Shown: piece after piece, positions 20,024 through 56,224 of the stretch
How positions within the stretch are numbered: the stretch's first letter is position 1
Layout of the letters: the number at the start of each line of letters is the position of its first letter
NCBI GenBank assembly: GCA_041489155.1
Contig: JBGPQP010000003.1
Span: 23,297 to 87,296, forward strand
Length of the DNA stretch: 64,000 nucleotides
Source: Candidatus Aenigmatarchaeota archaeon
GTDB taxonomy: Archaea; Aenigmatarchaeota; Aenigmatarchaeia; QMZP01; QMZT01
Reading direction: 5' to 3'
Made by a program: the position numbers and the translations under genes
Notes under the pieces: model-generated
What the model was told of the DNA's origin: nothing
Database searches by the model: none
Seen by the model: only the letters and a program-made list of their open reading frames with translations

Positions 20024-20509
20024 TCACAGCCTCTTGTAATTGTAAGTCTGTATCAGCCTGTTAGCAAGGCATTTTTCGCATATGTTTTTGATTTCCTTTT
20101 CCGTCAGGCTGCCGCTTATAACGTAAGTAGTTCCGGTCCTGACTTTCGCTCCATTTATGCCCATGACTTCTATCGCCTTCGCCACCGAAAGGCCGACGAC
20201 ATCCATGACGCCCGGCCTGAAAAACACTTCCACAACCCAGACGCCCCGCTTTTTTACGAGATTTTTCAGGTGTTTGCCGTCGAAGGCTGAGAAATTGAAA
20301 TACTGTATTATGCTGTCCGCGAGAAGTTCCCTGCCTGCTTTTTCGATGTCTTCTCTGTTCACATCGCCTTCTATCACGTAAGTCTGCAGCGTTTTTACTT
20401 CGCTGACCTTGGAAATTCCAAGGCCGATGATGTCGGCTTTCGTGTTCTCCCCAAGCGGATCCCTGTAACCGTCCTTGTAGCCCACTCCAGCAACCCACAT
20501 AAGCATCAA
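20024..20509 (-). CDS. purS: PurS, tandem (PurS-PurS) fusion
   Basis: 161 aa, about twice normal PurS length. Each half ends in a PurS-type motif (GRELLADSIIQYFNF and CEKCLANRLIQTYNY). It abuts purL with one nt between the genes. Confidence 0.75.
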   Translation of the reverse strand: MMLMWVAGVGYKDGYRDPLGENTKADIIGLGISKVSEVKTLQTYVIEGDVNREDIEKAGRELLADSIIQYFNFSAFDGKHLKNLVKKRGVWVVEVFFRPGVMDVVGLSVAKAIEVMGINGAKVRTGTTYVISGSLTEKEIKNICEKCLANRLIQTYNYKRL

Positions 20510-20640
20510 TACATTAACTATGCCCGACTGTTATAAAAATCTGAGTTTTCCGCTGCATGTCAGCGGTTTTTTCAGAAAATAGTTCGGGTTCCGTACGATA
20601 AAATTATAAAGCCTTCCGACACCATAATATTCTAATAATT

Positions 20641-21219
20641 ATGTCCGGCTTCATGAAGCACATACTGAGAAGGGAGATGCTTTCCCAGAGAAACAAGCAG
20701 AAAGGAGAGGTGAAACTGGAAAAGGACGCCATGATAAAAGAGAAACTCCTCTCGCTTAACGAATACAAGAAATCAAAGATAATCCTTTTCTATGTGTCTA
20801 TAAGGGGCGAAGTCAAAACCGAAGACATGCTGTCCCAGGCCCTCAGGGAAGGCAAAAGGGTTCTGGTTCCGTTCGTTAACGTGAAGAAAAAACTGATGTT
20901 GATTTCAGAGATACACGACCTTAACGAGCTTTCGCCGGGAGCGTTTGGCATACCTGTCCCCACGCATCCCAAGAAATTCCCCCTTGACAAGATAGACCTT
21001 ATGGTAGTCCCCGGCATAGCCTTTGACAGGAAGGGCAACAGGGTCGGCTACGGGACGGGCTTCTACGACAGATTCCTCAAGAGGCTCAAGAGGAATGTGC
21101 CCGTCATCGCGCTGGCTTACGACTTCCAGATAGTCCCGAAGATAATGCCCGACAAATACGACGTCAGGATCCACAAGATAGTCACCGAGAACGAAGTCAT
21201 CAGCTGCAGGAAAAGGTAA
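20641..21219 (+). CDS. 5-formyltetrahydrofolate cyclo-ligase
   Basis: 192 aa with MVVPGIAFDRKGNRVGYGTGFYDRFL, the family signature. Confidence 0.85.
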   Translation: MSGFMKHILRREMLSQRNKQKGEVKLEKDAMIKEKLLSLNEYKKSKIILFYVSIRGEVKTEDMLSQALREGKRVLVPFVNVKKKLMLISEIHDLNELSPGAFGIPVPTHPKKFPLDKIDLMVVPGIAFDRKGNRVGYGTGFYDRFLKRLKRNVPVIALAYDFQIVPKIMPDKYDVRIHKIVTENEVISCRKR

Positions 21220-21222
21220 CTT

Positions 21223-22527
21223 CTATTTTTTCAGGTCAACGTTTTCATTGAACTCGCGACCCATTCTTGCTTTCTTCCTGAACCATATCTCTCTCGCTTC
21301 CGCGACCGTGAAGAGCGAGCCGGTGACAAGAATCAGATCGTTTTTTCCCGCAAGCTGCATCGCCTTCCTCACAGCGTCCTTCACGTCGTAGATAACGAGA
21401 AAGTCCTTGCCTTGTTTTTTCACTTCCTTCGCAAGTTCGCAGGGATCCGCTCCTCTCCCCAGCACCTTGTGCTTCGTGAGAATGAAAAAGTCTGTCTTTC
21501 TGCCCGTCTCATGAAGCATTTTTGGTATGAGCTTGTCTTCTGACGCGCTGAAGACTGTGTAAAGTTTCCTGTATTTTATCAGGTCGAGCGAGTTCATAAG
21601 ATGTCTCATGGAATCGGAATCCTTCGCCCCGTCGAGCAGGATTTTCTTTCCCCTTCCAACCATTTCGAACCTTCCCGGCCATTTCACTTTTTCAAGACCT
21701 TTCTTTATCGCTTCATTTGGAATCTCTTCTTTCATCGAATTCAAAGCGGTAAGAGCGCAGGCGATATTCTTCAGCTGGTATGTGCCTGCAAGGGGAACGA
21801 AGATTTTCATGCCCCTGAATTTAATCTCGTTGCCGCGCAGAAATGATTTCGCGCCTCTAAGCCTTTTCGCGCGCACGAATTTCGCTTTCCTGTCCTTGCA
21901 TATTTTCCTGAGGACGGCGATGGCGTCGGGATTCTCGGCTCCGGTGACCAGAACTCCTCCTTCGTTCAATATGCCTGCTTTCTCCCTCGTTATTTTTTCC
22001 ACAGTGTCACCGAGTATCCTGATGTGCTCCAAAGAGACGTTAGTTATTATTGAAACCTCCGGCTTGACTGTGTTCGTCGCATCCAGCCTTCCGCCGAGCC
22101 CTACCTCAAGGACGGCGATGTCGATTTTTTTCTCCCTGAAATATTCGAACGCCATCGCTGTCACGAATTCGAAGAAAGTCGGGCATTCAAAATCCCTGCT
22201 CACATCGTCTGCGAAGGGTTTGATTTTTTCAACGAGCCTTATGAAATCGCTTTCCGGAATCATCTGCCTGTTAACCTTGATACGTTCCCTGAAATCGAAA
22301 AGGTGAGGTTTTGTGAAAACGCCCGTCCTGTAACCCGCTTCCTTCAGAACCGAGCCTATCATTACAGTCGTAGAGCCCTTGCCACTCGTCCCGCCGACAA
22401 GGACTGAGCGGAAGCTGTCCTGCGGGTTGCCGAGGAGTTCTAGAAGTTTTTGTATTCGCTCCAGGCCAAGCTTTATGCCGAACCTGTTCAGTTTCTGGAT
22501 GTAGTCGGTCGCCTCTATATAATTCAT
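21223..22527 (-). CDS. folC: Folylpolyglutamate synthase / dihydrofolate synthase
   Basis: 434 aa. Mur-ligase P-loop VGGTSGKGSTTVM and the FolC-type N-terminus (YIQKLNRFGIKLGLERIQKLL). Confidence 0.85.
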   Translation of the reverse strand: MNYIEATDYIQKLNRFGIKLGLERIQKLLELLGNPQDSFRSVLVGGTSGKGSTTVMIGSVLKEAGYRTGVFTKPHLFDFRERIKVNRQMIPESDFIRLVEKIKPFADDVSRDFECPTFFEFVTAMAFEYFREKKIDIAVLEVGLGGRLDATNTVKPEVSIITNVSLEHIRILGDTVEKITREKAGILNEGGVLVTGAENPDAIAVLRKICKDRKAKFVRAKRLRGAKSFLRGNEIKFRGMKIFVPLAGTYQLKNIACALTALNSMKEEIPNEAIKKGLEKVKWPGRFEMVGRGKKILLDGAKDSDSMRHLMNSLDLIKYRKLYTVFSASEDKLIPKMLHETGRKTDFFILTKHKVLGRGADPCELAKEVKKQGKDFLVIYDVKDAVRKAMQLAGKNDLILVTGSLFTVAEAREIWFRKKARMGREFNENVDLKK

Positions 22528-22552
22528 AAAAGAAATAATTGCTCTCCGCTTT

Positions 22553-24115
22553 TTAATGCTTGAACATGCGCCTGCCGGTGAAGATCATCGCAACGCCTGC
22601 GCTGTTGCATGCCTCTATAACTTCCTTATCCTTGACTGAGCCGCCCGGTTGGATTATGAAGCGAAGCCCGTTTTTTGCTGCTTCCTCTATCGAGTCCGGA
22701 AACGGGAAAAACGAATCGCTGGCAAGGACGCATTTCGAAATTTCGCTTTCGCTTAGTTTCATGCTACTCAGGTTTTCTTTCGCCTTTTCCACCGCTATTT
22801 TCAACGAAGTCACGCGGTTAGGCTGGCCCGCGCCCATACCGATTATGTGATACAAGCCGTGCCTGTATTCGCGCGCAATCACGACTGCGTTCGACTTCGT
22901 GTGCTTGCATGCGAGGCAGGCGAAGAGCGCGATATCCTTTTTGGCGTCTGGGAACCCGCTTTTCGTCACGGTCTTGAACTCGCTTTTACCCGCGTAGCCG
23001 ATGTCGCTTTCCTGTTCGAGGACCGCTGCCTTCAGGAACCTGTAATTTTTCCCGCTCTGGGAGAAATCTCCGAGTTCGATGAGCCTCAGGTTCTTTTTTG
23101 CGTCCAGAATCTTGATGGCGTCGGCATCAAATTCCGGCGCGATTATTACCTCGACAAATTTGTCCTTGAGGAATTCTGCCGCATCCTTGTCGACCGGTTT
23201 CGTAACGGCGACCACGCCTCCGAACGCTGATATGGGGTCGCCTTTCCAGGCGTTTTCCAGTGCCTCCCTCGCGTTCTCGCCGGTGGCGTAACCGCACGGG
23301 TTGGTGTGTTTTATTATGGCGGCGCCTGTTCCGTCCATGAGATCTCCTGCAGCGTCGACCGCGCTCTGGGCGTCAAGGTAATTGTTGTAAGACATCTCCT
23401 TGCCCTGGAGCTGTTTGGCGCTGGCTAGCGAGATTCCCTTGCCCGCGAAAATCTTAGCCTTCTGATGCCAGTTCTCTCCGTATCGCAGCGGCCTGCCGCC
23501 CGTGAATTTCAGGCGCAGGACTTCTTCGCTTGCGAATTTCCTCGAAAGGAAGCTCTCTATGTCGCCGTCGTAATCTGCTGTCATGCTGAAAGCTTTCAGT
23601 GAAAGAAGCTCTCTCGTTTTCAGGTCGACGTCCTTCCTTCCGTTCAGCTGCTTCACTATCATTTCATAATCATTAGGATCGGTCACGACCACCACGTCCC
23701 TGTAATTCTTCGCCGACGAGCGAATTAGGGCAGGGCCACCTATGTCGATATTCTCGATGATTTCCTCGAAAGACGCGCCGGCTTCAGCAGTCTTCCTGAA
23801 CTGGTAAAGATTCACAACGACCATGTCTATAGGCGATATGCCATGCGCCTTCGCCTGCTCCATGTGCCTACTGTCATCTCTGCGTGCGAGAATGCCGCCG
23901 TGGACTTTCGGATGCAGCGTCTTTACGCGGCCATCCATCATCTCGGGGAAGCCAGTGTGCTCCTCGATGAGTTTGACTTTGACTCCGTTCTCTTTCAGAA
24001 TTTTCGCAGTGCCGCCGGTCGAAATTATCTCAACGCCGAACTTCTCAAGGGCCTTCGCGAAATCGACTATGCCCGTCTTGTCGGTTACAGAAATCAAGGC
24101 GCGCCTGATTCTCAT
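22553..24115 (-). CDS. purH: Bifunctional AICAR transformylase / IMP cyclohydrolase
   Basis: 520 aa. N-terminal MGS-like IMPCH domain (RALISVTDKTG...STGGTA) followed by the AICARFT domain, ending ...RRMFKH. Confidence 0.95.
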   Translation of the reverse strand: MRIRRALISVTDKTGIVDFAKALEKFGVEIISTGGTAKILKENGVKVKLIEEHTGFPEMMDGRVKTLHPKVHGGILARRDDSRHMEQAKAHGISPIDMVVVNLYQFRKTAEAGASFEEIIENIDIGGPALIRSSAKNYRDVVVVTDPNDYEMIVKQLNGRKDVDLKTRELLSLKAFSMTADYDGDIESFLSRKFASEEVLRLKFTGGRPLRYGENWHQKAKIFAGKGISLASAKQLQGKEMSYNNYLDAQSAVDAAGDLMDGTGAAIIKHTNPCGYATGENAREALENAWKGDPISAFGGVVAVTKPVDKDAAEFLKDKFVEVIIAPEFDADAIKILDAKKNLRLIELGDFSQSGKNYRFLKAAVLEQESDIGYAGKSEFKTVTKSGFPDAKKDIALFACLACKHTKSNAVVIAREYRHGLYHIIGMGAGQPNRVTSLKIAVEKAKENLSSMKLSESEISKCVLASDSFFPFPDSIEEAAKNGLRFIIQPGGSVKDKEVIEACNSAGVAMIFTGRRMFKH

Positions 24116-24726
24116 GTGAGTACCCTCACCTTGTTGCCCTCTACCTTGAGCTTGCCGGAAGAGAAAAGCTTTATTGCTTCAAGAATTACATCCTGCTCTG
24201 CCTTCTGCACTTTCGCTTTCAGCGTTTCGGCTGTCTCGTTTTCGTCGACAGCGACTGGCCTCTGCATTATTATCGGTCCCCTGTCCACGTCCGGCGTGAC
24301 GAAGTGCAGCGTGCAGCCTGTGACCTTCAGGCCCAAGTTGAGCACTTCCTCATGGACGTTTATGTCCCTGCCGCCTGAAAACAAAGGCAGCAGCGACGGG
24401 TGGATATTCATTATTTTGTTATCGTAATGCTTGCAGAACCACGGCGAAAGGACTTTCATGAAGCCTATGAGCAGAATAAGGTCAACGCCTCTCTTGTCGA
24501 GTTCGTGCGCAGCAGCCTTGTCGAACAGCACCTGCTTGCCTCCCTCGTACTCGAGGAATATCGCGTCAATGCCGTGCGATCTCGCCCTTTCAAGAATCGG
24601 CGCGTCCTCCTTGTTCGAGACGACGCAGACAATCTGCGCGTCCAACTGCCTCTTTTCGATCGCGTCTATAATCGCCTGCATGTCCGTTCCTTTTGTCGAA
24701 CCCAGTACGCCAAGTTTTATCGTCAT
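24112..24726 (-). CDS. purN: GAR transformylase (folate-dependent)
   Basis: Track ORF extends to 24747. I prefer the ATG at 24726 (MTIKLGVLGS...), which is preceded by GGTGGGTGG. Has the NIHPSLLP catalytic motif and overlaps purH by 4 nt. Confidence 0.9.
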   Translation of the reverse strand: MTIKLGVLGSTKGTDMQAIIDAIEKRQLDAQIVCVVSNKEDAPILERARSHGIDAIFLEYEGGKQVLFDKAAAHELDKRGVDLILLIGFMKVLSPWFCKHYDNKIMNIHPSLLPLFSGGRDINVHEEVLNLGLKVTGCTLHFVTPDVDRGPIIMQRPVAVDENETAETLKAKVQKAEQDVILEAIKLFSSGKLKVEGNKVRVLT

Positions 24727-24815
24727 CACACACCACCCACCTACCAAATTAGTATGATATATAATCCAAATTGTTTTTGTCTTTTAAAAATTAAATTCTA
24801 TAAAATCCTGAGAAA

Positions 24816-25040
24816 TTATAACTGTACCTTTAGCCCAGCTTGTCTATTGTTCATCTTTTCAATGATAGCTTTAATAGCAGGTTCATATGAGCCCGAGATA
24901 GTGAGTGTGGCTTCTCGTTCGTCAATCCCCATGTATGGCGGACAACAATTCCTTCTTAAGTAATTTGACTTGATCATATCTCTTGCGACGTATAATTGGC
25001 CTATGTACCTTTTTGAGTTGACAGCGAGCTTAAAACTCAT
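24816..25040 (-). CDS. Hypothetical 74-aa protein inside an AT-rich spacer
   Basis: The only ORF in the AT-rich gap between purN and folD. I recognise no motif. Confidence 0.3.
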   Translation of the reverse strand: MSFKLAVNSKRYIGQLYVARDMIKSNYLRRNCCPPYMGIDEREATLTISGSYEPAIKAIIEKMNNRQAGLKVQL

Positions 25041-25082
25041 CTTAACTTAAAGGTAGTTAAATTATTTAAATATTGCGTACAG

Positions 25083-25934
25083 CTATTTCTGGAGCATTCT
25101 CTCCGCAGAAATGACGGTGTTCTCGAGGACCATCGCGACCGTGAGAGGGCCGACGCCGCCGGGTACGGGCGTGATGTAAGAGGCGACGTTCCTAACGCGG
25201 TCGAAATCTACGTCGCCGAGTATCCTGCTGCCCATGCGGTTCGTCCCCACGTCGATGACTACCGCGTCCTTCTTGACCATATCAGCCGTGACGAAATTCG
25301 CCTTACCCACCGCAGCGAAAAGAATGTCCGCATTTTTCGTGTGGCTTTTCAAATCGCTTGTCTTCGAGTGGCACATCGTCGCTGTGGCGTTCCTTTTTAT
25401 GAGCATGAACAGCAACGGCTTGCCCACGATGTTGCTCCTGCCGATGACGACGGCGTTCTTTCCCTCGATGGGAATGCGTTCATGTTCGAGCATCTTCATT
25501 ATACCCTTCGGCGTGCAAGGCTCGAATGTTTCGTCGCCTGCCATGAGCCTGCCGAGGCTGCAGGTGGTCAGGCCGTCAACATCTTTCGTGATTGTTATGG
25601 TATCGAGGATTTTCTGCTCGTCCATCTGCGAGGGCAGCGGAAGCTGCACGAGTATGCCGTGGACATACCTGTCTGCGTTGAGTTTTTCTATGAGCCTTAT
25701 CACGTCCTCCTGCTTCGCATTTCTGCCGAACATGTGGAGTTCGGCTTTCATCCCGGTCTCTTCCGAAGCCTTCATTTTTGCCTTTACGTAAATTTCCGAA
25801 GCGGCGTTGTCGCCGACAAGAAGTATGTCAAGTTTCGGCGTTATGCCTTTCTTTTTCAGAGTATTGATGCGGCTCCTGAGTTGGCCGAGAATTTCAGCTG
25901 AAATCTTCCTGCCATCAAGAATTTTCGCTGCCAT
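25083..25934 (-). CDS. folD: Methylene-THF dehydrogenase / methenyl-THF cyclohydrolase
   Basis: 283 aa. FolD signatures YVKAKMKA, GILVQLPLP and PVPGGVGPLTVAML. Confidence 0.92.
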   Translation of the reverse strand: MAAKILDGRKISAEILGQLRSRINTLKKKGITPKLDILLVGDNAASEIYVKAKMKASEETGMKAELHMFGRNAKQEDVIRLIEKLNADRYVHGILVQLPLPSQMDEQKILDTITITKDVDGLTTCSLGRLMAGDETFEPCTPKGIMKMLEHERIPIEGKNAVVIGRSNIVGKPLLFMLIKRNATATMCHSKTSDLKSHTKNADILFAAVGKANFVTADMVKKDAVVIDVGTNRMGSRILGDVDFDRVRNVASYITPVPGGVGPLTVAMVLENTVISAERMLQK

Positions 25935-49598: not shown

Positions 49599-49734
49599 GC
49601 TTTCGCCCGTCGTCCGCGCCAGATAAACTAATTTTGTCCGCGGTTCTATATATTCATTTTATAGAGTCCTGCCTTTGCCCCGGCTGCCGGCAAATTACCC
49701 AAAATTAAGTAAAATTAACCACTATTCGATGACA

Positions 49735-49760
49735 AAAATATTTATAAATATATAATATAA
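49735..49760 (+). promoter_or_regulatory. AT-rich TATA-like region upstream of the propeller array
   Basis: aaaatatttataaatatataatataa lies about 50-70 nt upstream of the ATG at 49808. A GAGGTG Shine-Dalgarno-like element sits 7 nt before that ATG. Confidence 0.3.
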
Positions 49761-49807
49761 TTAATTAGTAACGATTCGAAGATTTCAACTACCAGAGGTG
49801 TTTGTGG

Positions 49808-51184
49808 ATGGATTTCGGCTTTGAAGGCTTCGACTCCGGTTTCACCGGTTTTGACGTGGATGTAGAAGAGTTTCAGGTCAGCAAAAAGAAGAAATATGAC
49901 AGGATATGGAAAGTCGGTTTCGGCGGAAGCGTGTGTTCAAAACCCGTCATACTCAATGACGTAATATACTTCGGCTCCCTCGACCACAACGTTTATGCTA
50001 TTGATATCAAAACGGAAAAAGAGGTCTGGAGATTCAAGACCAACGGCATAATATTGGATTCTTCCCCGACGATACACAATGGTGTATTGTTTATAGGATG
50101 TTTTGGCGGAACCATTCATGCAATAAACATTCGGACAGGCAGGGAAGTGTGGAATTACAAGGCAGGAGGAGAGATAAACTGCAGGCCGCTTGTCTGGAAC
50201 GGCGCGGTTTATTTCACGTCGAAGGACGGTTTTCTTTACGCCGTATACGAAACGGGAGGGAAGGAAATCTGGCGCTTCCGGACAGGAGACGAAATGGTTT
50301 CATCTCCCACTGTCCACAAAGGCAAAATATTCATCGGTTCTTATGACGGCAATCTTTATTGCATCAAGGAGGATACAGGCAAGGAGCTGTGGAGATTCAG
50401 AACAGGGGCGGAGATAGAGAACGATGACCAGTTCCTCATACACGAAGACATCATCTACTTCGGAGGCTTTGACAATTTCCTTTATGCGGTTGATATCGAA
50501 ACCGGCAAGGAAATATGGAGGTTCAGGACCGGCAAGTATGGCAACAACAGCGTTCCAGTGATTCATAACGATGTTCTTTACCATGGAAGCAGGGACGGCA
50601 TTTTTTACGCGCTTTCGCTTGAAGGCAAGGAGATATGGAGGTTCAAGGCGGGAGCGGAGATAACGGACAAGGGCCCGCTCGTATACAGGGGCAGGATTCA
50701 CTTCGGGTGTGGCGACGGGAACGTGTATTGCTTGAGCACCGAAGGAGAGGAAATATGGCGTTACAAGACGGACGGAGGCGTGTACACTTCGATAGTCGAG
50801 CATGAAGGGGTCCTATACTTCGGCAGCTGGGACTGCCACCTGTATGCGCTGGACGCGGACACAGGCAGGGAAATTTGGAGGTTCACGACAAGCACGCTAA
50901 CAAAAGCCCCATTACCTCCTGCATACGAATGCTTCGAGATGGAAATCAAAAAGGAAACGCACATAGAAGAGGCCATGGGAGACAGCAGGTACAAGAAGAA
51001 AAGGGAAGAGACATCGTCCCTATCAGATTATCATATTACAAGCGAATACCACACGGAATCGGAGTACAAGCAGAAATCAGAGTACGATACGAACTGGGTC
51101 ATGTTTGAAGATGTCATGGAAGGAGAGGAATTATGTCTTTTGGATTCGAAGGTTTCGCATCCTCGGATTTTGAGACCGAGCTAG
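49808..51184 (+). CDS. PQQ-like 8-bladed beta-propeller protein, paralogue 1
   Basis: The track start at 49802 is TTG; I prefer the ATG at 49808 (MDFGFEGFDSGF...). Eight ~40-aa blades of the type VIYFGS.D..VYAID..TGKEVWRFKT. No signal peptide or TM segment. Confidence 0.8.
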   Translation: MDFGFEGFDSGFTGFDVDVEEFQVSKKKKYDRIWKVGFGGSVCSKPVILNDVIYFGSLDHNVYAIDIKTEKEVWRFKTNGIILDSSPTIHNGVLFIGCFGGTIHAINIRTGREVWNYKAGGEINCRPLVWNGAVYFTSKDGFLYAVYETGGKEIWRFRTGDEMVSSPTVHKGKIFIGSYDGNLYCIKEDTGKELWRFRTGAEIENDDQFLIHEDIIYFGGFDNFLYAVDIETGKEIWRFRTGKYGNNSVPVIHNDVLYHGSRDGIFYALSLEGKEIWRFKAGAEITDKGPLVYRGRIHFGCGDGNVYCLSTEGEEIWRYKTDGGVYTSIVEHEGVLYFGSWDCHLYALDADTGREIWRFTTSTLTKAPLPPAYECFEMEIKKETHIEEAMGDSRYKKKREETSSLSDYHITSEYHTESEYKQKSEYDTNWVMFEDVMEGEELCLLDSKVSHPRILRPS

Positions 51185-52488
51185 AGGATTTCAGCGTGAA
51201 GAGGATCGGCAAGTTCGACAGGATGTGGAAGATTACCGAAGGCGGCAGCATAGCCCATTCCATACTGCACGACGGCATGGTTTACTTCGGTTCTTGTGAC
51301 AGAAATGTTTACGCCGTTGATTGCAAGAGCGGCAAGGAGATATGGAGGTTCAAGACCGGAGGACCTGTAACAGCAATGCCCTTTTTTAAGGAAGGCGTGC
51401 TTTACATAGGCTCGCATGACGGCAAATTCTATGCGCTTGAAGCAAAGAGTGGAAAGGAGATGTGGAGATTCAACGCAGGCAGCGAGATATTTTCCGGTTC
51501 ATTCGTTCATGAGGGCATGATTTTCTTCGGCTGCAGGAGCGGTTATTTTTACGCGCTGAACACCGAAGGCGAAGAGCTCTGGAGGTTCAGGACGGGCAGC
51601 GAAATAGTCTTCAATCCCGTCGCCGCAAATGGAAAGGTTTTCGTGGGCTCGTTCGACAGGAACCTTTATTGCTTGGACTTCGAAAACGGCAAAGAACTCT
51701 GGAGGTTTAAGACAGGAGACATCGTGCACGCTGACATCATGCCGCTGGTTCTGGAAAATATGATTTACTTCGCTTCTTTTGACAGCTATCTGTACGCAGT
51801 CGACGTTACAAGCGGCAAGGAGATATGGAGGTTCAAGACAGGAAAATACGGAAATGCAGGAAGTCCCGTGTGTTACAGAGGAGTCATCTACCACGGTTCC
51901 AGAGACGGAATTCTTTATGTCCTGACTCTTGAAGGCAAAGAAATGTGGAGATTCAAGACGGGAGGCATGCTAGAATCTCCACCTCTAGTCAAGGATGCTT
52001 ATGTTTATCTGACTTCCGAGGACGGGAATGTTTACTGCCTAAATCTCGATGGGAAAGAGCTGTGGAGGTTCAAGGCCGGAGGAGCGATTTACACCTCGCC
52101 TAAATTCTACAAAAACGTTCTTTACATTGGCTCATGGGACTGCCATCTTTATGCGCTGAATCTCAGGGGGGAAGAAATCTGGAGATTCGCAACAAGCTCT
52201 CTCGTTCCAGCACAAATACCGCCGGCCCACGAGGCCTTCAAGATGGAGATATCAAAAACGTTTGAAAGCGATACCATTGAAGAAAAGGACAAATACAAGG
52301 CGAAGAAAGACGAGACAATCTCGCTTTCCGACTATCACGTCAAAAGTGAATATCACACGGAAAGCGAGTACAAGCAGAAGAGTGAATATGAAGCCAACTG
52401 GGTTATATTTGAAGGAGTTCTAGAAGGTGAACAGATATGGACTTCGGATTTGAAGATCTTGACACCGGCTTCTCGGCTTTCGACGTAG
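51133..52488 (+). CDS. PQQ-like 8-bladed beta-propeller protein, paralogue 2
   Basis: Starts MSFGFEGFASSDFETELEDF, with its own GGAGAGG 5 nt upstream. Eight blades. The start lies 52 nt inside paralogue 1, in another frame. Confidence 0.8.
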   Translation: MSFGFEGFASSDFETELEDFSVKRIGKFDRMWKITEGGSIAHSILHDGMVYFGSCDRNVYAVDCKSGKEIWRFKTGGPVTAMPFFKEGVLYIGSHDGKFYALEAKSGKEMWRFNAGSEIFSGSFVHEGMIFFGCRSGYFYALNTEGEELWRFRTGSEIVFNPVAANGKVFVGSFDRNLYCLDFENGKELWRFKTGDIVHADIMPLVLENMIYFASFDSYLYAVDVTSGKEIWRFKTGKYGNAGSPVCYRGVIYHGSRDGILYVLTLEGKEMWRFKTGGMLESPPLVKDAYVYLTSEDGNVYCLNLDGKELWRFKAGGAIYTSPKFYKNVLYIGSWDCHLYALNLRGEEIWRFATSSLVPAQIPPAHEAFKMEISKTFESDTIEEKDKYKAKKDETISLSDYHVKSEYHTESEYKQKSEYEANWVIFEGVLEGEQIWTSDLKILTPASRLST

Positions 52489-53819
52489 ACGTAGAGGAAG
52501 TCGTGGTGAAGAAGACGAAGACTTACGACAGGGTATGGAAGACAACCATGGGCGGGAGCATAGACAACAACCCGCTGATGCATGAAGGGATTATCTACTT
52601 TGGCGCGTGCGACGGCCAAGTCTATGCGGTTGATGCAGGAAGCGGCAAAGTCATCTGGACGTTCAGGACGAGCGACACCATAGTCGGCTCCTCGCCCGCG
52701 CTTTTCGGGAACTCGATAATCATAGGATCGTACGACGGGAACCTCTACAGGATAGATTTGGAAAAAAGGGATGCGGTCTGGGTTTTTAAAACCTCGGGCA
52801 AGATATTCAGCTCGCCGTTTGTATACGGGGAAAACGCCTATTTCGGCTCGATGGACGGTAACGTTTATGCGGTCAACTGCGAGGTCGGCAAGGAGACCTG
52901 GAGATTCAGGACGGGCGGGGAGATAGCGTCATCGCCGCTGGTTGAGAACGGAAAGGTGTACATCACATCTTACGACCATAACATGTATTGCTTGGATGCT
53001 GAAACAGGAAAGGAATTGTGGAGGTTCAGGACAGGGGACGAGATGATAAACAACATACCCTTCATAGTACACAGGGGAGTTCTCTATTTTGGCAGCCTAG
53101 ACAATTATCTTTACGCTGTTGACTGCAACACAGGCAAGGAGCTGTGGAGATTCAAAGCTGGCAAATACGGCATCGGAGGCAGCATGCCAGTCGTCCACAA
53201 AGATGTGCTTTACTTCGGTACAAGGGACGGGGACTTTTTTGCCCTCACTCTTAGAGGTAAGGAGCTCTGGCGCTTCCGCGCGGGCGAGCCGATAATCGGA
53301 CAGCAGCCAAGGATTTACAATGGCATGATAATTTTCGGATGCGAGGACGGCAACATTTATTTCCTTGATATCAAAGGCAAGGAAATAGGAAGATTCAAGA
53401 CAGGCGGAAGACTTTACGGAAAGTTCCTTTTGCATGAAGGCAAGATATACATCGGCAGCTGGGACTGTTATCTTTATTGCATAGATACTGAGAACAGGAA
53501 GGAAGTATGGAGATGCCCGACGTCGACAATGGTGCAGGCCTACATACCGCCGGCACACGCCTCGTTCAGCGTCGAGATAAAGAAGGGCGTGCATATAGAA
53601 GACGCTGTCAGCGAGGACAAATACAGGTCGAAAAAGAAGGAAGAAGTTGTTTCCCTTTCTGATTATCACGTGAAAAGCGAATATCATACGGAAAGCGAGT
53701 ACAAACAAAAATCAGAATACGATACTAACTGGGTTATGTTTGAAGATGTCACGGAAGGAGAGGAATTATGTCTTTTGGATTCGACACTTTTGAATCCGGT
53801 TTCTCGGATTTTGATGTAG
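52437..53819 (+). CDS. PQQ-like 8-bladed beta-propeller protein, paralogue 3
   Basis: Starts MDFGFEDLDTGFSAFDVDVEE, with AAGGTGA 6 nt upstream. Eight blades. Overlaps paralogue 2 by 52 nt. Confidence 0.8.
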   Translation: MDFGFEDLDTGFSAFDVDVEEVVVKKTKTYDRVWKTTMGGSIDNNPLMHEGIIYFGACDGQVYAVDAGSGKVIWTFRTSDTIVGSSPALFGNSIIIGSYDGNLYRIDLEKRDAVWVFKTSGKIFSSPFVYGENAYFGSMDGNVYAVNCEVGKETWRFRTGGEIASSPLVENGKVYITSYDHNMYCLDAETGKELWRFRTGDEMINNIPFIVHRGVLYFGSLDNYLYAVDCNTGKELWRFKAGKYGIGGSMPVVHKDVLYFGTRDGDFFALTLRGKELWRFRAGEPIIGQQPRIYNGMIIFGCEDGNIYFLDIKGKEIGRFKTGGRLYGKFLLHEGKIYIGSWDCYLYCIDTENRKEVWRCPTSTMVQAYIPPAHASFSVEIKKGVHIEDAVSEDKYRSKKKEEVVSLSDYHVKSEYHTESEYKQKSEYDTNWVMFEDVTEGEELCLLDSTLLNPVSRILM

Positions 53820-55132
53820 ACGTTGAAGAAGTGACGATGAGGAAGACCAAGAAGTTCGACCGCGTATTCCGCGTCGGCTTCGGCGGCAGCATAAACCAGA
53901 AGCCGCTTATTTTGGGCGATATCATCGTTTTCGGCTCCATGGACCATTACCTTTATGCGGTTAATCTGGAGACCGGCATGGAAGCATGGAGGATGAAGGC
54001 GAACGGCATCTTCATGGAATCGTCGCCCGTGACAGACGGCGAGACGGTTTTCATTGGCAGTTATGATTATTGCCTTTACGCAGTTGACCCCGAAGACGGC
54101 GGCATCAGATGGAGGTTCAGAACAGGAGGCGAAATCCTAGGCACGCCCGCACTGGACGAAAAGCATGTTTACATAGGTTCAAGGGATGGAAGCTTTTATT
54201 GTCTGGACAAAGAGTCGGGCAAAGAACTTTGGAGGTTCAGGACAGGAGACTGGGTTGTAGCGAGCGCATTTGTCGATAAGGGAAGGGTCTACATAGGCTC
54301 CTTTGATGGCAATTTCTACTGTCTCGACAAGCGCACAGGCAAGGAGATATGGCGCTTCAGGGCCGGTGCGGAGATATACGATGTCTACCCTGGTAATGTA
54401 ATGAATGGCAGAATTTTCGTTCCATGTTTTGACAACAACCTCTACTGCATCAATGCGGACAACGGCAAGGAAATATGGAGGTTCAGGGTCGGCAGATACG
54501 GCACTGCAACTGCGCCAGCCGTCTACAAAAACGTGCTTTACCAGGAATCAAGGGACGGCATCCTTTACGCCCTGACGCTTGATGGCAAGGAGATCTGGAG
54601 ATTCAAGACAGGCGGCCTCATAGGGATGCCTGTCATAAAAGAGGACAGGATCTATGTCGGCTCGGCTGACAAGAATCTTTACTGCGTAGATCTGCATGGA
54701 AAAGAGCTATGGAGATTCAGGACTGACGGAGATGTTTTCTGGTGCCCTGTGATAAAAGGCAACGTGATATACTTCACCTCTTGGGACTGCCACCTTTACG
54801 CCGTAGATTTGGAAACGCGCAAAGAGTTGTGGAGGTTTGCGACTTCCACGTTGTCGCAGGCCGAGTGGCCTCCTGCGTACGAAGGCTGGGAAGCAGAAAT
54901 AAAGAAGGGAATGCACATAGAGGACGCAATAACAGAGGAAAGATACAAGGCCAGGAAAAAGGAGAACGTGGTTTCACTCTCCGATTACCACGTTGCCAGC
55001 GAGTATCATATGGAATCTGAATATAAGCAAAAGTCTGATTACAGCACTAACTGGGCTATGTTCGAGGAAGACCTGATTACAGGGTTCATTCAGGCAGAGA
55101 GTATCAACATTCTGCAGAAATTTATGAAGTAA
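53768..55132 (+). CDS. PQQ-like 8-bladed beta-propeller protein, paralogue 4
   Basis: Starts MSFGFDTFESGFSDFDVDVEE, with GGAGAGG upstream. Eight blades. It is the only copy with a free C-terminus (...NWAMFEEDLITGFIQAESINILQKFMK). Confidence 0.8.
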   Translation: MSFGFDTFESGFSDFDVDVEEVTMRKTKKFDRVFRVGFGGSINQKPLILGDIIVFGSMDHYLYAVNLETGMEAWRMKANGIFMESSPVTDGETVFIGSYDYCLYAVDPEDGGIRWRFRTGGEILGTPALDEKHVYIGSRDGSFYCLDKESGKELWRFRTGDWVVASAFVDKGRVYIGSFDGNFYCLDKRTGKEIWRFRAGAEIYDVYPGNVMNGRIFVPCFDNNLYCINADNGKEIWRFRVGRYGTATAPAVYKNVLYQESRDGILYALTLDGKEIWRFKTGGLIGMPVIKEDRIYVGSADKNLYCVDLHGKELWRFRTDGDVFWCPVIKGNVIYFTSWDCHLYAVDLETRKELWRFATSTLSQAEWPPAYEGWEAEIKKGMHIEDAITEERYKARKKENVVSLSDYHVASEYHMESEYKQKSDYSTNWAMFEEDLITGFIQAESINILQKFMK

Positions 55133-55144
55133 AAAAGCCTGACC

Positions 55145-56224
55145 CTAATCGGCGACATGAGGCAGCAGGTTCGCTTTTTTCGTCAGCCACCATACAATTA
55201 AGGTTGCCACTATCGTACAAATAGCAAGAACCGGAATGTACCAGTAGACGTCGTCAGCAGTGAACTGGAACATGGGATTGCCGGCGATGGTCGCGATGGT
55301 GTTCGGGACCAGCAGCGCGGTGCCTATTATCGCAAGATACGCCGCCAGCAGCGCGAGGCGGTTGTTGAGAATCTGGAGCTGGTTATTGTATATTGATTGC
55401 AGCACTTCGAGGCCGCTGGCAAGGACCTCGCTCAGGTGCTCGGCAAGGCCGATGTGCGAATGCACCTCGCCGACCAGGCCGCTAAGCCGGTCAAGTATTT
55501 TGGAATCATCCGTGAGCAAATCAGGGTCGCCGTAGCGTATCGAGTTCAGCGCATCCACGGTTGACCACATCCCCCCGAGATAGACGATGAGCGCGTGCTT
55601 CATCTGGTGTATCTTGGGACCCAGAATCTGCCGCGGCGTTTTGGGATCCGAAAGTTCCTCGCTCATCTTGTCTCCCAACTCTTCTATCTCCCTCAGGTGG
55701 TCGAAGTTGCGCGAGTTATTTTCATCGATTATGCGAATCAGAAGCATCGTTATCTTGTCGTTCTGCAAAAGACCTTCAGGAAGCTTTCTCAGCAGGGTTT
55801 CAGCGTATCTTCTCACGCGGAAAAACCTTTTGGTTTCAATCGTGTGTATCGTGAAGATTACGTTCTGCTTTATGAAAATCAGGAGAGGATCTATGTCCAC
55901 TTCGAAGCCCTTGACTTTCAACGCGGGAAGCAGAATGCCGACCTCGTTGCCAAAATCCTCGTAGCCGCTTCGGGAGGATTTAATGATTTTCTTGGCAAGC
56001 TGCTCGGTAAAGCCCAGCGATGTTGCGACTTCAACGCTTTCAGTTTCAAAGTCGCTCACAACGTAATCTATCCACGCTACGGTCGCTTCTTTTATCAGCG
56101 GGCAAAAATCCTTTACGTTGTCCGACTCCTTGCACCTCGTCTCGCCGCTTTCGTAAAGCGCTGCGCAGAAGCCGCGGTTTTCAAAAACCGAATCCTTGTT
56201 TTCCCCTTCATTCGCGTTTTCCAT
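55145..56224 (-). CDS. corA: CorA-family divalent cation channel homologue with a non-canonical pore motif
   Basis: 359 aa. A cytoplasmic alpha/beta-plus-coiled-coil region is followed by two C-terminal TM helices. The YGMNF position reads AGNPMF. Confidence 0.7.
   Translation of the reverse strand: MENANEGENKDSVFENRGFCAALYESGETRCKESDNVKDFCPLIKEATVAWIDYVVSDFETESVEVATSLGFTEQLAKKIIKSSRSGYEDFGNEVGILLPALKVKGFEVDIDPLLIFIKQNVIFTIHTIETKRFFRVRRYAETLLRKLPEGLLQNDKITMLLIRIIDENNSRNFDHLREIEELGDKMSEELSDPKTPRQILGPKIHQMKHALIVYLGGMWSTVDALNSIRYGDPDLLTDDSKILDRLSGLVGEVHSHIGLAEHLSEVLASGLEVLQSIYNNQLQILNNRLALLAAYLAIIGTALLVPNTIATIAGNPMFQFTADDVYWYIPVLAICTIVATLIVWWLTKKANLLPHVAD

Follow-up and report, generated by a model that had tools for sequence, protein, structure and literature searches.

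Gene conversion between tandem paralogs is a textbook mechanism, and the concerted evolution of conserved gene ends that it brings about is familiar from the Campylobacter flagellin genes flaA/flaB and from the duplicated tuf genes. For overlapping genes, long co-directional examples of which are rare, the closest described systems are of two kinds. The enterobacterial pair holD–rimI, overlapping by 32–56 bp, represents the longest co-directional overlap accepted as real, none above 60 bp having been judged so (PMC2478687). In translationally coupled −4/−1 gene pairs, efficient termination–reinitiation is confined to overlaps or gaps of a few nucleotides (nt), from −8 to about +6 (Huber et al. 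2023, PMC10666635). Here we describe an array in which both phenomena appear to meet. It consists of four tandem genes for PQQ-like eight-bladed propellers, g1–g4, occupying positions 49808–55132 (all on the forward strand) of a 64,000-nt stretch of contig JBGPQP010000003.1; the whole stretch is referred to as the window, and coordinates are window positions. The source is a metagenome-assembled genome of Candidatus Aenigmatarchaeota, a DPANN archaeon (assembly of 1.13 Mb, 39 contigs, ~90% complete). Every internal junction (3 of 3) is a 52-nt overlap with the downstream gene in the −1 frame, and the g1/g2 and g3/g4 junctions (J12 and J34) are nearly identical to each other. We read the excess identity of J12 and J34 as the trace of localised ectopic gene conversion involving a patch of ~150 nt, a reading to which we assign a probability of roughly 80%. 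No literature on these arrays was found when Aenigmarchaeota were searched for together with PQQ or beta-propeller.

The four genes are listed below. Labels G001–G018 stand for related genomes and G000 for the genome under study; a suffix, as in G003_4, gives the gene within that genome's array, and L0xx labels denote loci.

49808..51184, forward strand: g1, open reading frame (ORF) of 458 amino acids with PF13570 and PF13360 matches; its last 17 codons are the g2 head read out of frame
51133..52488, forward strand: g2, ORF encoding a paralog of 451 amino acids that starts MSFGF; body orthologs G003_4 and G017_4
52437..53819, forward strand: g3, ORF encoding a paralog of 460 amino acids; body orthologs G001_2, G017_2, G018_3 and G014a_2
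53768..55132, forward strand: g4, ORF encoding the last paralog, 454 amino acids; body orthologs G003_2 and G012_7

The bodies of the four genes share 45–55% amino-acid and 55–62% nucleotide identity. Each gene has its own separate orthologs in other genera, so g1–g4 are ancient paralogs. The body orthologs of g1 are G001_1, G002_1 and G003_1, while g3 shares 68–75% identity with its orthologs in five relatives and falls in a clade with support of 100/100. The C-terminal tail of g4 overlaps no gene.

An earlier note, made from the sequence alone, had stated that the segments 51062–51149 and 53697–53784 differ at only 6 of 88 positions and end in the same 32-mer. Both statements are correct (82/88 identical), and the repeat is placed as follows.

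51118..51149, forward strand: perfect 32-mer, copy 1, an exact repeat that includes a Shine–Dalgarno (SD) element and the ATG at 51133
53753..53784, forward strand: perfect 32-mer, copy 2, an exact repeat that includes an SD element and the ATG at 53768

In the 1.13-Mb assembly the 32-mer is found at these two places only. It is the longest exact direct repeat in 49700–55200, and the next ones in that interval (29, 25, 25 and 24 nt) all lie within GKEIWRFK blade motifs. The six differences are found at segment offsets 8, 11, 20, 29, 38 and 55. Five of them are at third codon positions of the upstream frame, as had been claimed, and all five are synonymous; the sixth (offset 55) is ATG versus ACG (M/T). 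The divergence noted immediately downstream takes the form of an abrupt drop in identity after position +17 of the downstream gene. The middle junction (g2/g3), described as having the same geometry and a different sequence, does so, matching the other two at 62/88 and 61/88 positions.

Between paralogs of this genome, 60-nt windows have a mean identity of 0.568 (standard deviation 0.084, maximum 0.87 in 5870 body windows), and the J12/J34 window reaches 0.95. Where the encoded residues are identical, the codons are identical too in 21 of 26 cases within the 88-nt segment versus 97 of 194 in the body (binomial p = 0.0012). The earlier claim that the junctions are the best-conserved DNA of the array holds for the J12/J34 pair only: family-wide, in a sample of 67 family members from 13 genomes, the junction windows (0.66 and 0.645) rank 7th and 9th, with blade motifs at 0.73 and 0.71 and the head at 0.70.

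The genome contains a second array with the same 52-nt overlap, comprising at least three family genes (contig C3:2-3062, loci L006/L003). Its junction (ATGTTTGAAGATGTTATGGAAGGAGAAGAACTATG) matches J12 at 68/88 positions, more than the middle junction in the window does.

Comparison with orthologs separates the junction from the gene bodies. In sliding windows across the body, the orthologs of g1 resemble it more (0.69) than g3 does (0.62). Over the final ~150 nt the relation is reversed: identity between g1 and g3 climbs through 0.72, 0.80 and 0.87 to its peak of 0.95, and identity between g1 and its orthologs sinks to ~0.6, g1 being only 58–65% identical to them in this stretch. A sliding-window plot and a comparison with orthologous arrays had both been proposed in the earlier note as checks; the orthologs lack the shared junction bases. 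The putative tracts are delimited as follows.

51000..51149, forward strand: converted tract, copy 1 (g1/g2), based on sliding windows, informative sites, the tail tree with its approximately unbiased (AU) test, and the identity gradient
53635..53784, forward strand: converted tract, copy 2 (g3/g4), based on the same evidence; tentative donor

Copy 1 contains g1 tail codons (SLSDYH...NWVMFEDVMEGEEL), the SD element, the ATG and the first 17 nt of g2. Its 5′ edge is approximate (~51000–51040), and its 3′ edge is sharp, at 51149/51150.

Informative sites at which g1 agrees with g3 or with its orthologs are divided 113:252 in the body and 34:7 from ~51000 on (Fisher p = 1e-10). In the body tree, g1 groups with its orthologs (support 99/98), and the AU test rejects a g1+g3 clade (difference in log-likelihood, delta lnL, of 254; p = 0.0015). 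The tail tree unites this genome's g1, g3 and g4 (92/91), and the AU test rejects placing g1 with its body orthologs (delta lnL 34.8, p = 0.005). Two shared peptide states accompany this pattern: the heads of both g2 and g4 read MSFGF, where the orthologs of both start MD(F/I)GF, and the SEYHTESEY tails are specific to this genome and absent from the orthologs. Localised gene conversion, which the earlier note had offered as one of two alternatives, is borne out by a tract phylogenetically incongruent with the bodies and by shared states that the orthologs lack. Constraint alone predicts that orthologs share the junction bases; since they do not, the excess identity is best understood as a conversion patch.

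Several points weigh against this interpretation. The tail partition was picked after the sliding-window plot had been seen, so the AU p-values are post hoc and are to be taken as descriptive, and the tail alignment is short (156 columns). The graded decay of identity at the 5′ side could reflect several events instead of one. Nor can the donor be named confidently. We tentatively favour J34, as within the tract g3 retains 0.70–0.74 identity to its ortholog G017_2, compared with 0.58–0.65 between g1 and the g1 orthologs, which hints only weakly at direction. Since neither the g2 orthologs nor the g4 orthologs have the MSFGF head, the patch may come from a third junction outside those sampled, the assembly being incomplete.

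We propose that a patch of ~150 nt was copied between the g3/g4 and g1/g2 junctions in the lineage of this genome after it had split from the sequenced congeners. The patch would run from the C-terminal tail codons of the upstream gene, with the SD element embedded in them, through the ATG to nt 17 of the downstream gene. It would sit where purifying selection keeps the paralogs alike, that is, at the disordered S-[DE]-Y tail, the SD element in its fixed register and the MDFGFEGF head, and this homology, maintained by selection, probably seeds recombination at the junctions. Each internal gene reads on, out of frame, across the SD linker and 17 codons into the next gene until it meets a stop codon, and the read-through tail shows no protein-coding constraint of its own. 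Translation of each gene most likely starts from its own SD and ATG, the genes sharing a polycistronic mRNA with one promoter upstream of g1.

As in flaA/flaB and tuf, near-identity of old paralogs is limited to one short segment under constraint, the tract and the remainder of the gene have incongruent phylogenies, and the pattern recurs independently in related genomes. Unlike in those cases, the patch reaches across a gene boundary, covering the end of one gene and the beginning of another, and includes start signals that lie inside the coding tail of the upstream gene, within a 52-nt out-of-frame overlap; moreover, the converted parts encode predicted disordered termini and not a structural core. 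If conversion is accepted, a known process operating on an operon of unusual, conserved overlapping layout accounts for the near-identity of J12 and J34. Exchange tracts centred on gene boundaries would move start signals, together with disordered head and tail peptides, between old paralogs.

Arrays from 14 related genomes were compared with that of the genome under study. Adjacent family genes overlap by 43–73 nt at 66 of 71 junctions, 38 of these overlaps being exactly 52 nt, and the frame relation is constant. The 52-nt −1-frame overlap is inherited within this Aenigmatarchaeota gene subfamily. The junction most similar to that of a given gene is located in the same genome in 30 of 67 cases, compared with 3 of 67 for gene bodies and a chance expectation of 6.2; mean body identity does not differ within and between genomes (0.546 in both), and codon usage therefore cannot account for the junction effect. 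Junction-centred islands of 85–100% identity between non-orthologous paralogs are present in G012, G006, G017, G011, G018 and G014, with varying edges. The junctions behave as apparent recombination hot spots, presumably because tail, SD element and head add up to the longest segment in which selection holds the paralogs to a similar sequence.

Individual arrays provide further observations. Two congener arrays, L031 (G003:C7) and L043 (G002:C8), differ by three whole genes, and the switch point lies in the tail. The g1 ortholog of G002 bears the tail and junction of the fourth gene of G003 (85% identity at the junction, 56% in the body), suggesting a deletion or insertion by crossover inside the tail. 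In L030 (G001:C25:2447-3820), the congener ortholog of g3 ends its array with a terminal-type tail (FEEVLNLNPDLIQDGFLKFTEKA), suggesting that tails are exchanged independently of bodies. At junctions 1/2 and 3/4 of L041 (G011:C5), the overlaps measure only 4 and 1 nt with the same frame relation, so the long overlap can collapse to the classical coupled form.

The overlap is not a property of the whole family. Contig C9 of this genome (positions 20485-25601; L007, L009 and L010) carries a four-gene array of a sister subfamily with no overlap and with spacers of 9–23 nt, whose proteins stop right after K-x-E-Y repeats (…KVEYQQKMKY, then the stop codon). The tail consisting of NWVMFE and the SD linker, along with the overlap, is accordingly specific to one subfamily. 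When a junction profile was searched with nhmmer, it aligned to the tails of terminal genes only to about position −15 before the ATG position, which fits an origin with a unit boundary just upstream of the SD element, although it is no proof of one. The same result rules out the idea that the terminal-gene tail is the decayed in-frame head of a lost gene, as nothing aligns beyond ~−15. A derivation of the junction from blade-motif DNA was also considered (EGEEIW versus GKEIWRF; family D12); we do not treat this likeness as homology, because it is forced by a purine-rich SD element followed by ATGG.

One competing explanation takes the junction for a selected module beyond an ordinary ribosome-binding site (RBS), being either a recombination joint for cassettes or a coupling device that needs the long overlap. 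Gene order varies among genomes, the three-gene difference between G002 and G003 switches in the tail, and the overlap geometry is kept at 66 of 71 junctions and in many genera, though a single mutation to TAATG would shorten it and G011 does contain overlaps of 4 and 1 nt. A hot spot is, however, expected anyway at the longest shared homology of the paralogs, no evidence of selection on the overlap tail was seen, and long phase-2 overlaps have been described as by-products of stop-codon loss that are as a rule uncoupled (PMC10666635). We consider this explanation of the conserved block improbable. The related proposition that selection has made the overlapping junction, comprising tail, SD linker and head, into a recombination joint and not left it a passive hot spot seems unlikely to us. 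If it were true, any crossover or conversion inside the joint would regenerate complete genes with their own start signals; reduced DPANN genomes could gain, lose, reorder and re-tail propeller genes as cassettes; and the long overlap would be retained for cassette exchange, or for coupling without termination–reinitiation.

A second alternative to gene conversion, the other reading named in the earlier note, is multi-layer purifying selection through dual coding, ribosome binding and translational coupling, which would keep the 88 nt alike with no transfer of sequence. Constraint does exist: the tail peptide is conserved in g1–g4, the SD core is nearly invariant, the head peptide is conserved, and column identity around the ATG is above the gene average. 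In addition, 120-nt folds at the three junctions and at the start of g1 do not exceed shuffled controls in stability (junction z-scores +1.0, +1.05 and −1.35), which fits an accessible RBS. What constraint leaves unexplained is the excess identity. The orthologs of g1 are just 58–65% identical to it in the stretch, the middle junction and the wider family use different sequences, the junctions rank 7th to 9th family-wide and not first, and synonymous sites are homogenised only within genomes.

Dual coding, in particular, did not hold up. Column identity over 38 aligned 52-nt overlaps amounts to 0.69, 0.73 and 0.44 at codon positions 1, 2 and 3 of the downstream frame, the only frame whose periodicity the variability shows. 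It follows that the second codon positions of the upstream frame, the most variable in the overlap, are the freest sites, and that the 17-residue out-of-frame extension of the upstream protein shows no coding constraint. We regard selection acting alone as very unlikely; conversion would instead sit atop ordinary constraint on the tail peptide, the SD element and the head peptide.

If a two-gene unit had recently been duplicated in tandem, g1-g2 giving rise to g3-g4, and the junction had since diverged less quickly than the bodies, this would agree with g1/g3 being the most similar pair (54.6% amino-acid identity) and with a junction spacing of exactly one two-gene unit (2635 nt). However, g2/g4 is the least similar pair (45%), each of g1–g4 has distinct orthologs in other genera, the orthologs of g1 and g3 adjoin in the relatives G001, G014 and G017, and the tails of g1 orthologs differ from the g1 tail. 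Such a duplication is contradicted by the body tree with its AU test, and we find it scarcely credible.

A programmed −1 ribosomal frameshift fusing adjacent propellers, with the conserved block as its signal, would use the same −1 shift that every junction requires for entry into the next gene, but its probability is close to negligible: the canonical X_XXY_YYZ heptamer is present at 0 of 3 junctions here and at only 8 of 66 family-wide, there is neither a stable downstream structure nor an Rfam match, each downstream gene has its own SD element, ATG and Met-first head like the first genes of arrays, and the downstream frame is closed by a stop codon, most often just 2–9 codons before the ATG. 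The Rfam search returned no family, its sole match being SNORD56 (C/D box) at 55086–55127 on the reverse strand (22.7 bits, E = 0.41), which is below the gathering score and was taken as chance.

As an overlap, the junction resembles holD–rimI in being a co-directional overlap of ~50 nt that is conserved among relatives and arose when the upstream gene was lengthened at its 3′ end into the downstream ORF. It differs in being repeated, at almost all junctions, throughout operons that hold as many as 11 paralogs, in that the junctions are all mutually homologous, and in that the upstream frame shows no constraint within the overlap. With coupled −4/−1 pairs (PMC10666635) it shares a single strand, one operon and the same overlap phase (52 = 4 + 48); the SD element again lies within the upstream gene, and the products are paralogs that could assemble together. 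In contrast to those pairs, the 52-nt overlap at all three junctions falls far outside the range of −8 to about +6 for reinitiation. An overlap of ~52 nt (43–73) at nearly every junction, in many genera of Aenigmatarchaeota, is near the upper limit accepted as real (PMC2478687). For annotation this means that such long overlaps should not be "corrected" as mispredictions.

Expression signals can be recognised at each gene start.

49741..49748, forward strand: TATA-box-like element TTTATAAA, read from the sequence, 60–67 nt upstream of the g1 start
49795..49800, forward strand: SD element of g1, GAGGTG, at positions −13 to −8, complementary to the 16S 3′ end and in the same register as the junction SD elements
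51121–51125, forward strand: SD element of g2, AGGAG, within 32-mer copy 1; ATG at 51133
52425..52430, forward strand: SD element of g3, AGGTGA, within g2 tail codons at the middle, unconverted junction
53756–53760, forward strand: SD element of g4, AGGAG, within 32-mer copy 2; ATG at 53768

The 3′ end of the 16S rRNA of this genome is GGATCACCTCCT; it is complementary to the SD elements of g1–g4, all in the same register. Across 38 aligned junctions, the core positions G-11, G-8 and A-7 are nearly invariant, and the SD element is real. The TATA-box-like element at 49741..49748 is likely the single promoter of a four-gene operon. Most arrays (L030–L035, L042, L043 and window positions 49720–49807) carry a tttataaa element ~45–70 nt before the ATG, followed by (G/A)AGGTG(G/A)TCTTGG-ATG. 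The upstream region would thus represent a well-conserved archaeal arrangement of promoter and SD element across genera. Most complete arrays end in a gene whose tail is of another kind and does not overlap, with a T-rich stretch behind it, and a TATA-like element and an SD element usually stand before the first gene; from this start and this distinct end, the arrays appear to be single operons.

The proteins themselves are clearly PQQ-like propellers of the BamB type. All four (g1–g4) match PF13570 with 210–241 bits (cut-off 133) and PF13360 with 143–220 bits (cut-off 27.6). An AlphaFold2 model of g1 contains eight four-stranded blades in residues 21–381, with a predicted local distance difference test score (pLDDT) above 90, and in Foldseek it matches BamB, YxaL and designed eight-bladed propellers (TMt 0.75–0.91). 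The best structural matches, BamB and YxaL, are non-enzymatic scaffolds. Unlike BamB-type propellers, these proteins have no signal peptide or lipobox, and their two ends, which are predicted to be disordered, consist of an acidic-aromatic head and a ~75-residue tail bearing S-[DE]-Y repeats.

In g1, pLDDT falls below 50 in the head (residues 1–21; window 49808–49870) and in the tail (residues 382–458, ~77 residues; window 50950–51184), the latter consisting of a Lys-rich linker, S-[DE]-Y hexapeptide repeats and NWVMFE; both parts are predicted to be disordered. The tail peptide SLSDYHxxSEYxxxSEYKQKS[DE]Yxxx[WF]V[MI]FE is common to g1–g4, including g4, which has no gene downstream, and the head peptide MDFGFEGF is conserved. 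The head and tail of g1 may represent conserved linear motifs for some partner. A further difference from BamB-type propellers is the massive expansion of the family in genomes of ~1 Mb: the signal-less propellers take up several per cent of coding capacity, with 23 matches in the 1.13-Mb genome studied here and up to 40 in a relative of 1.1 Mb.

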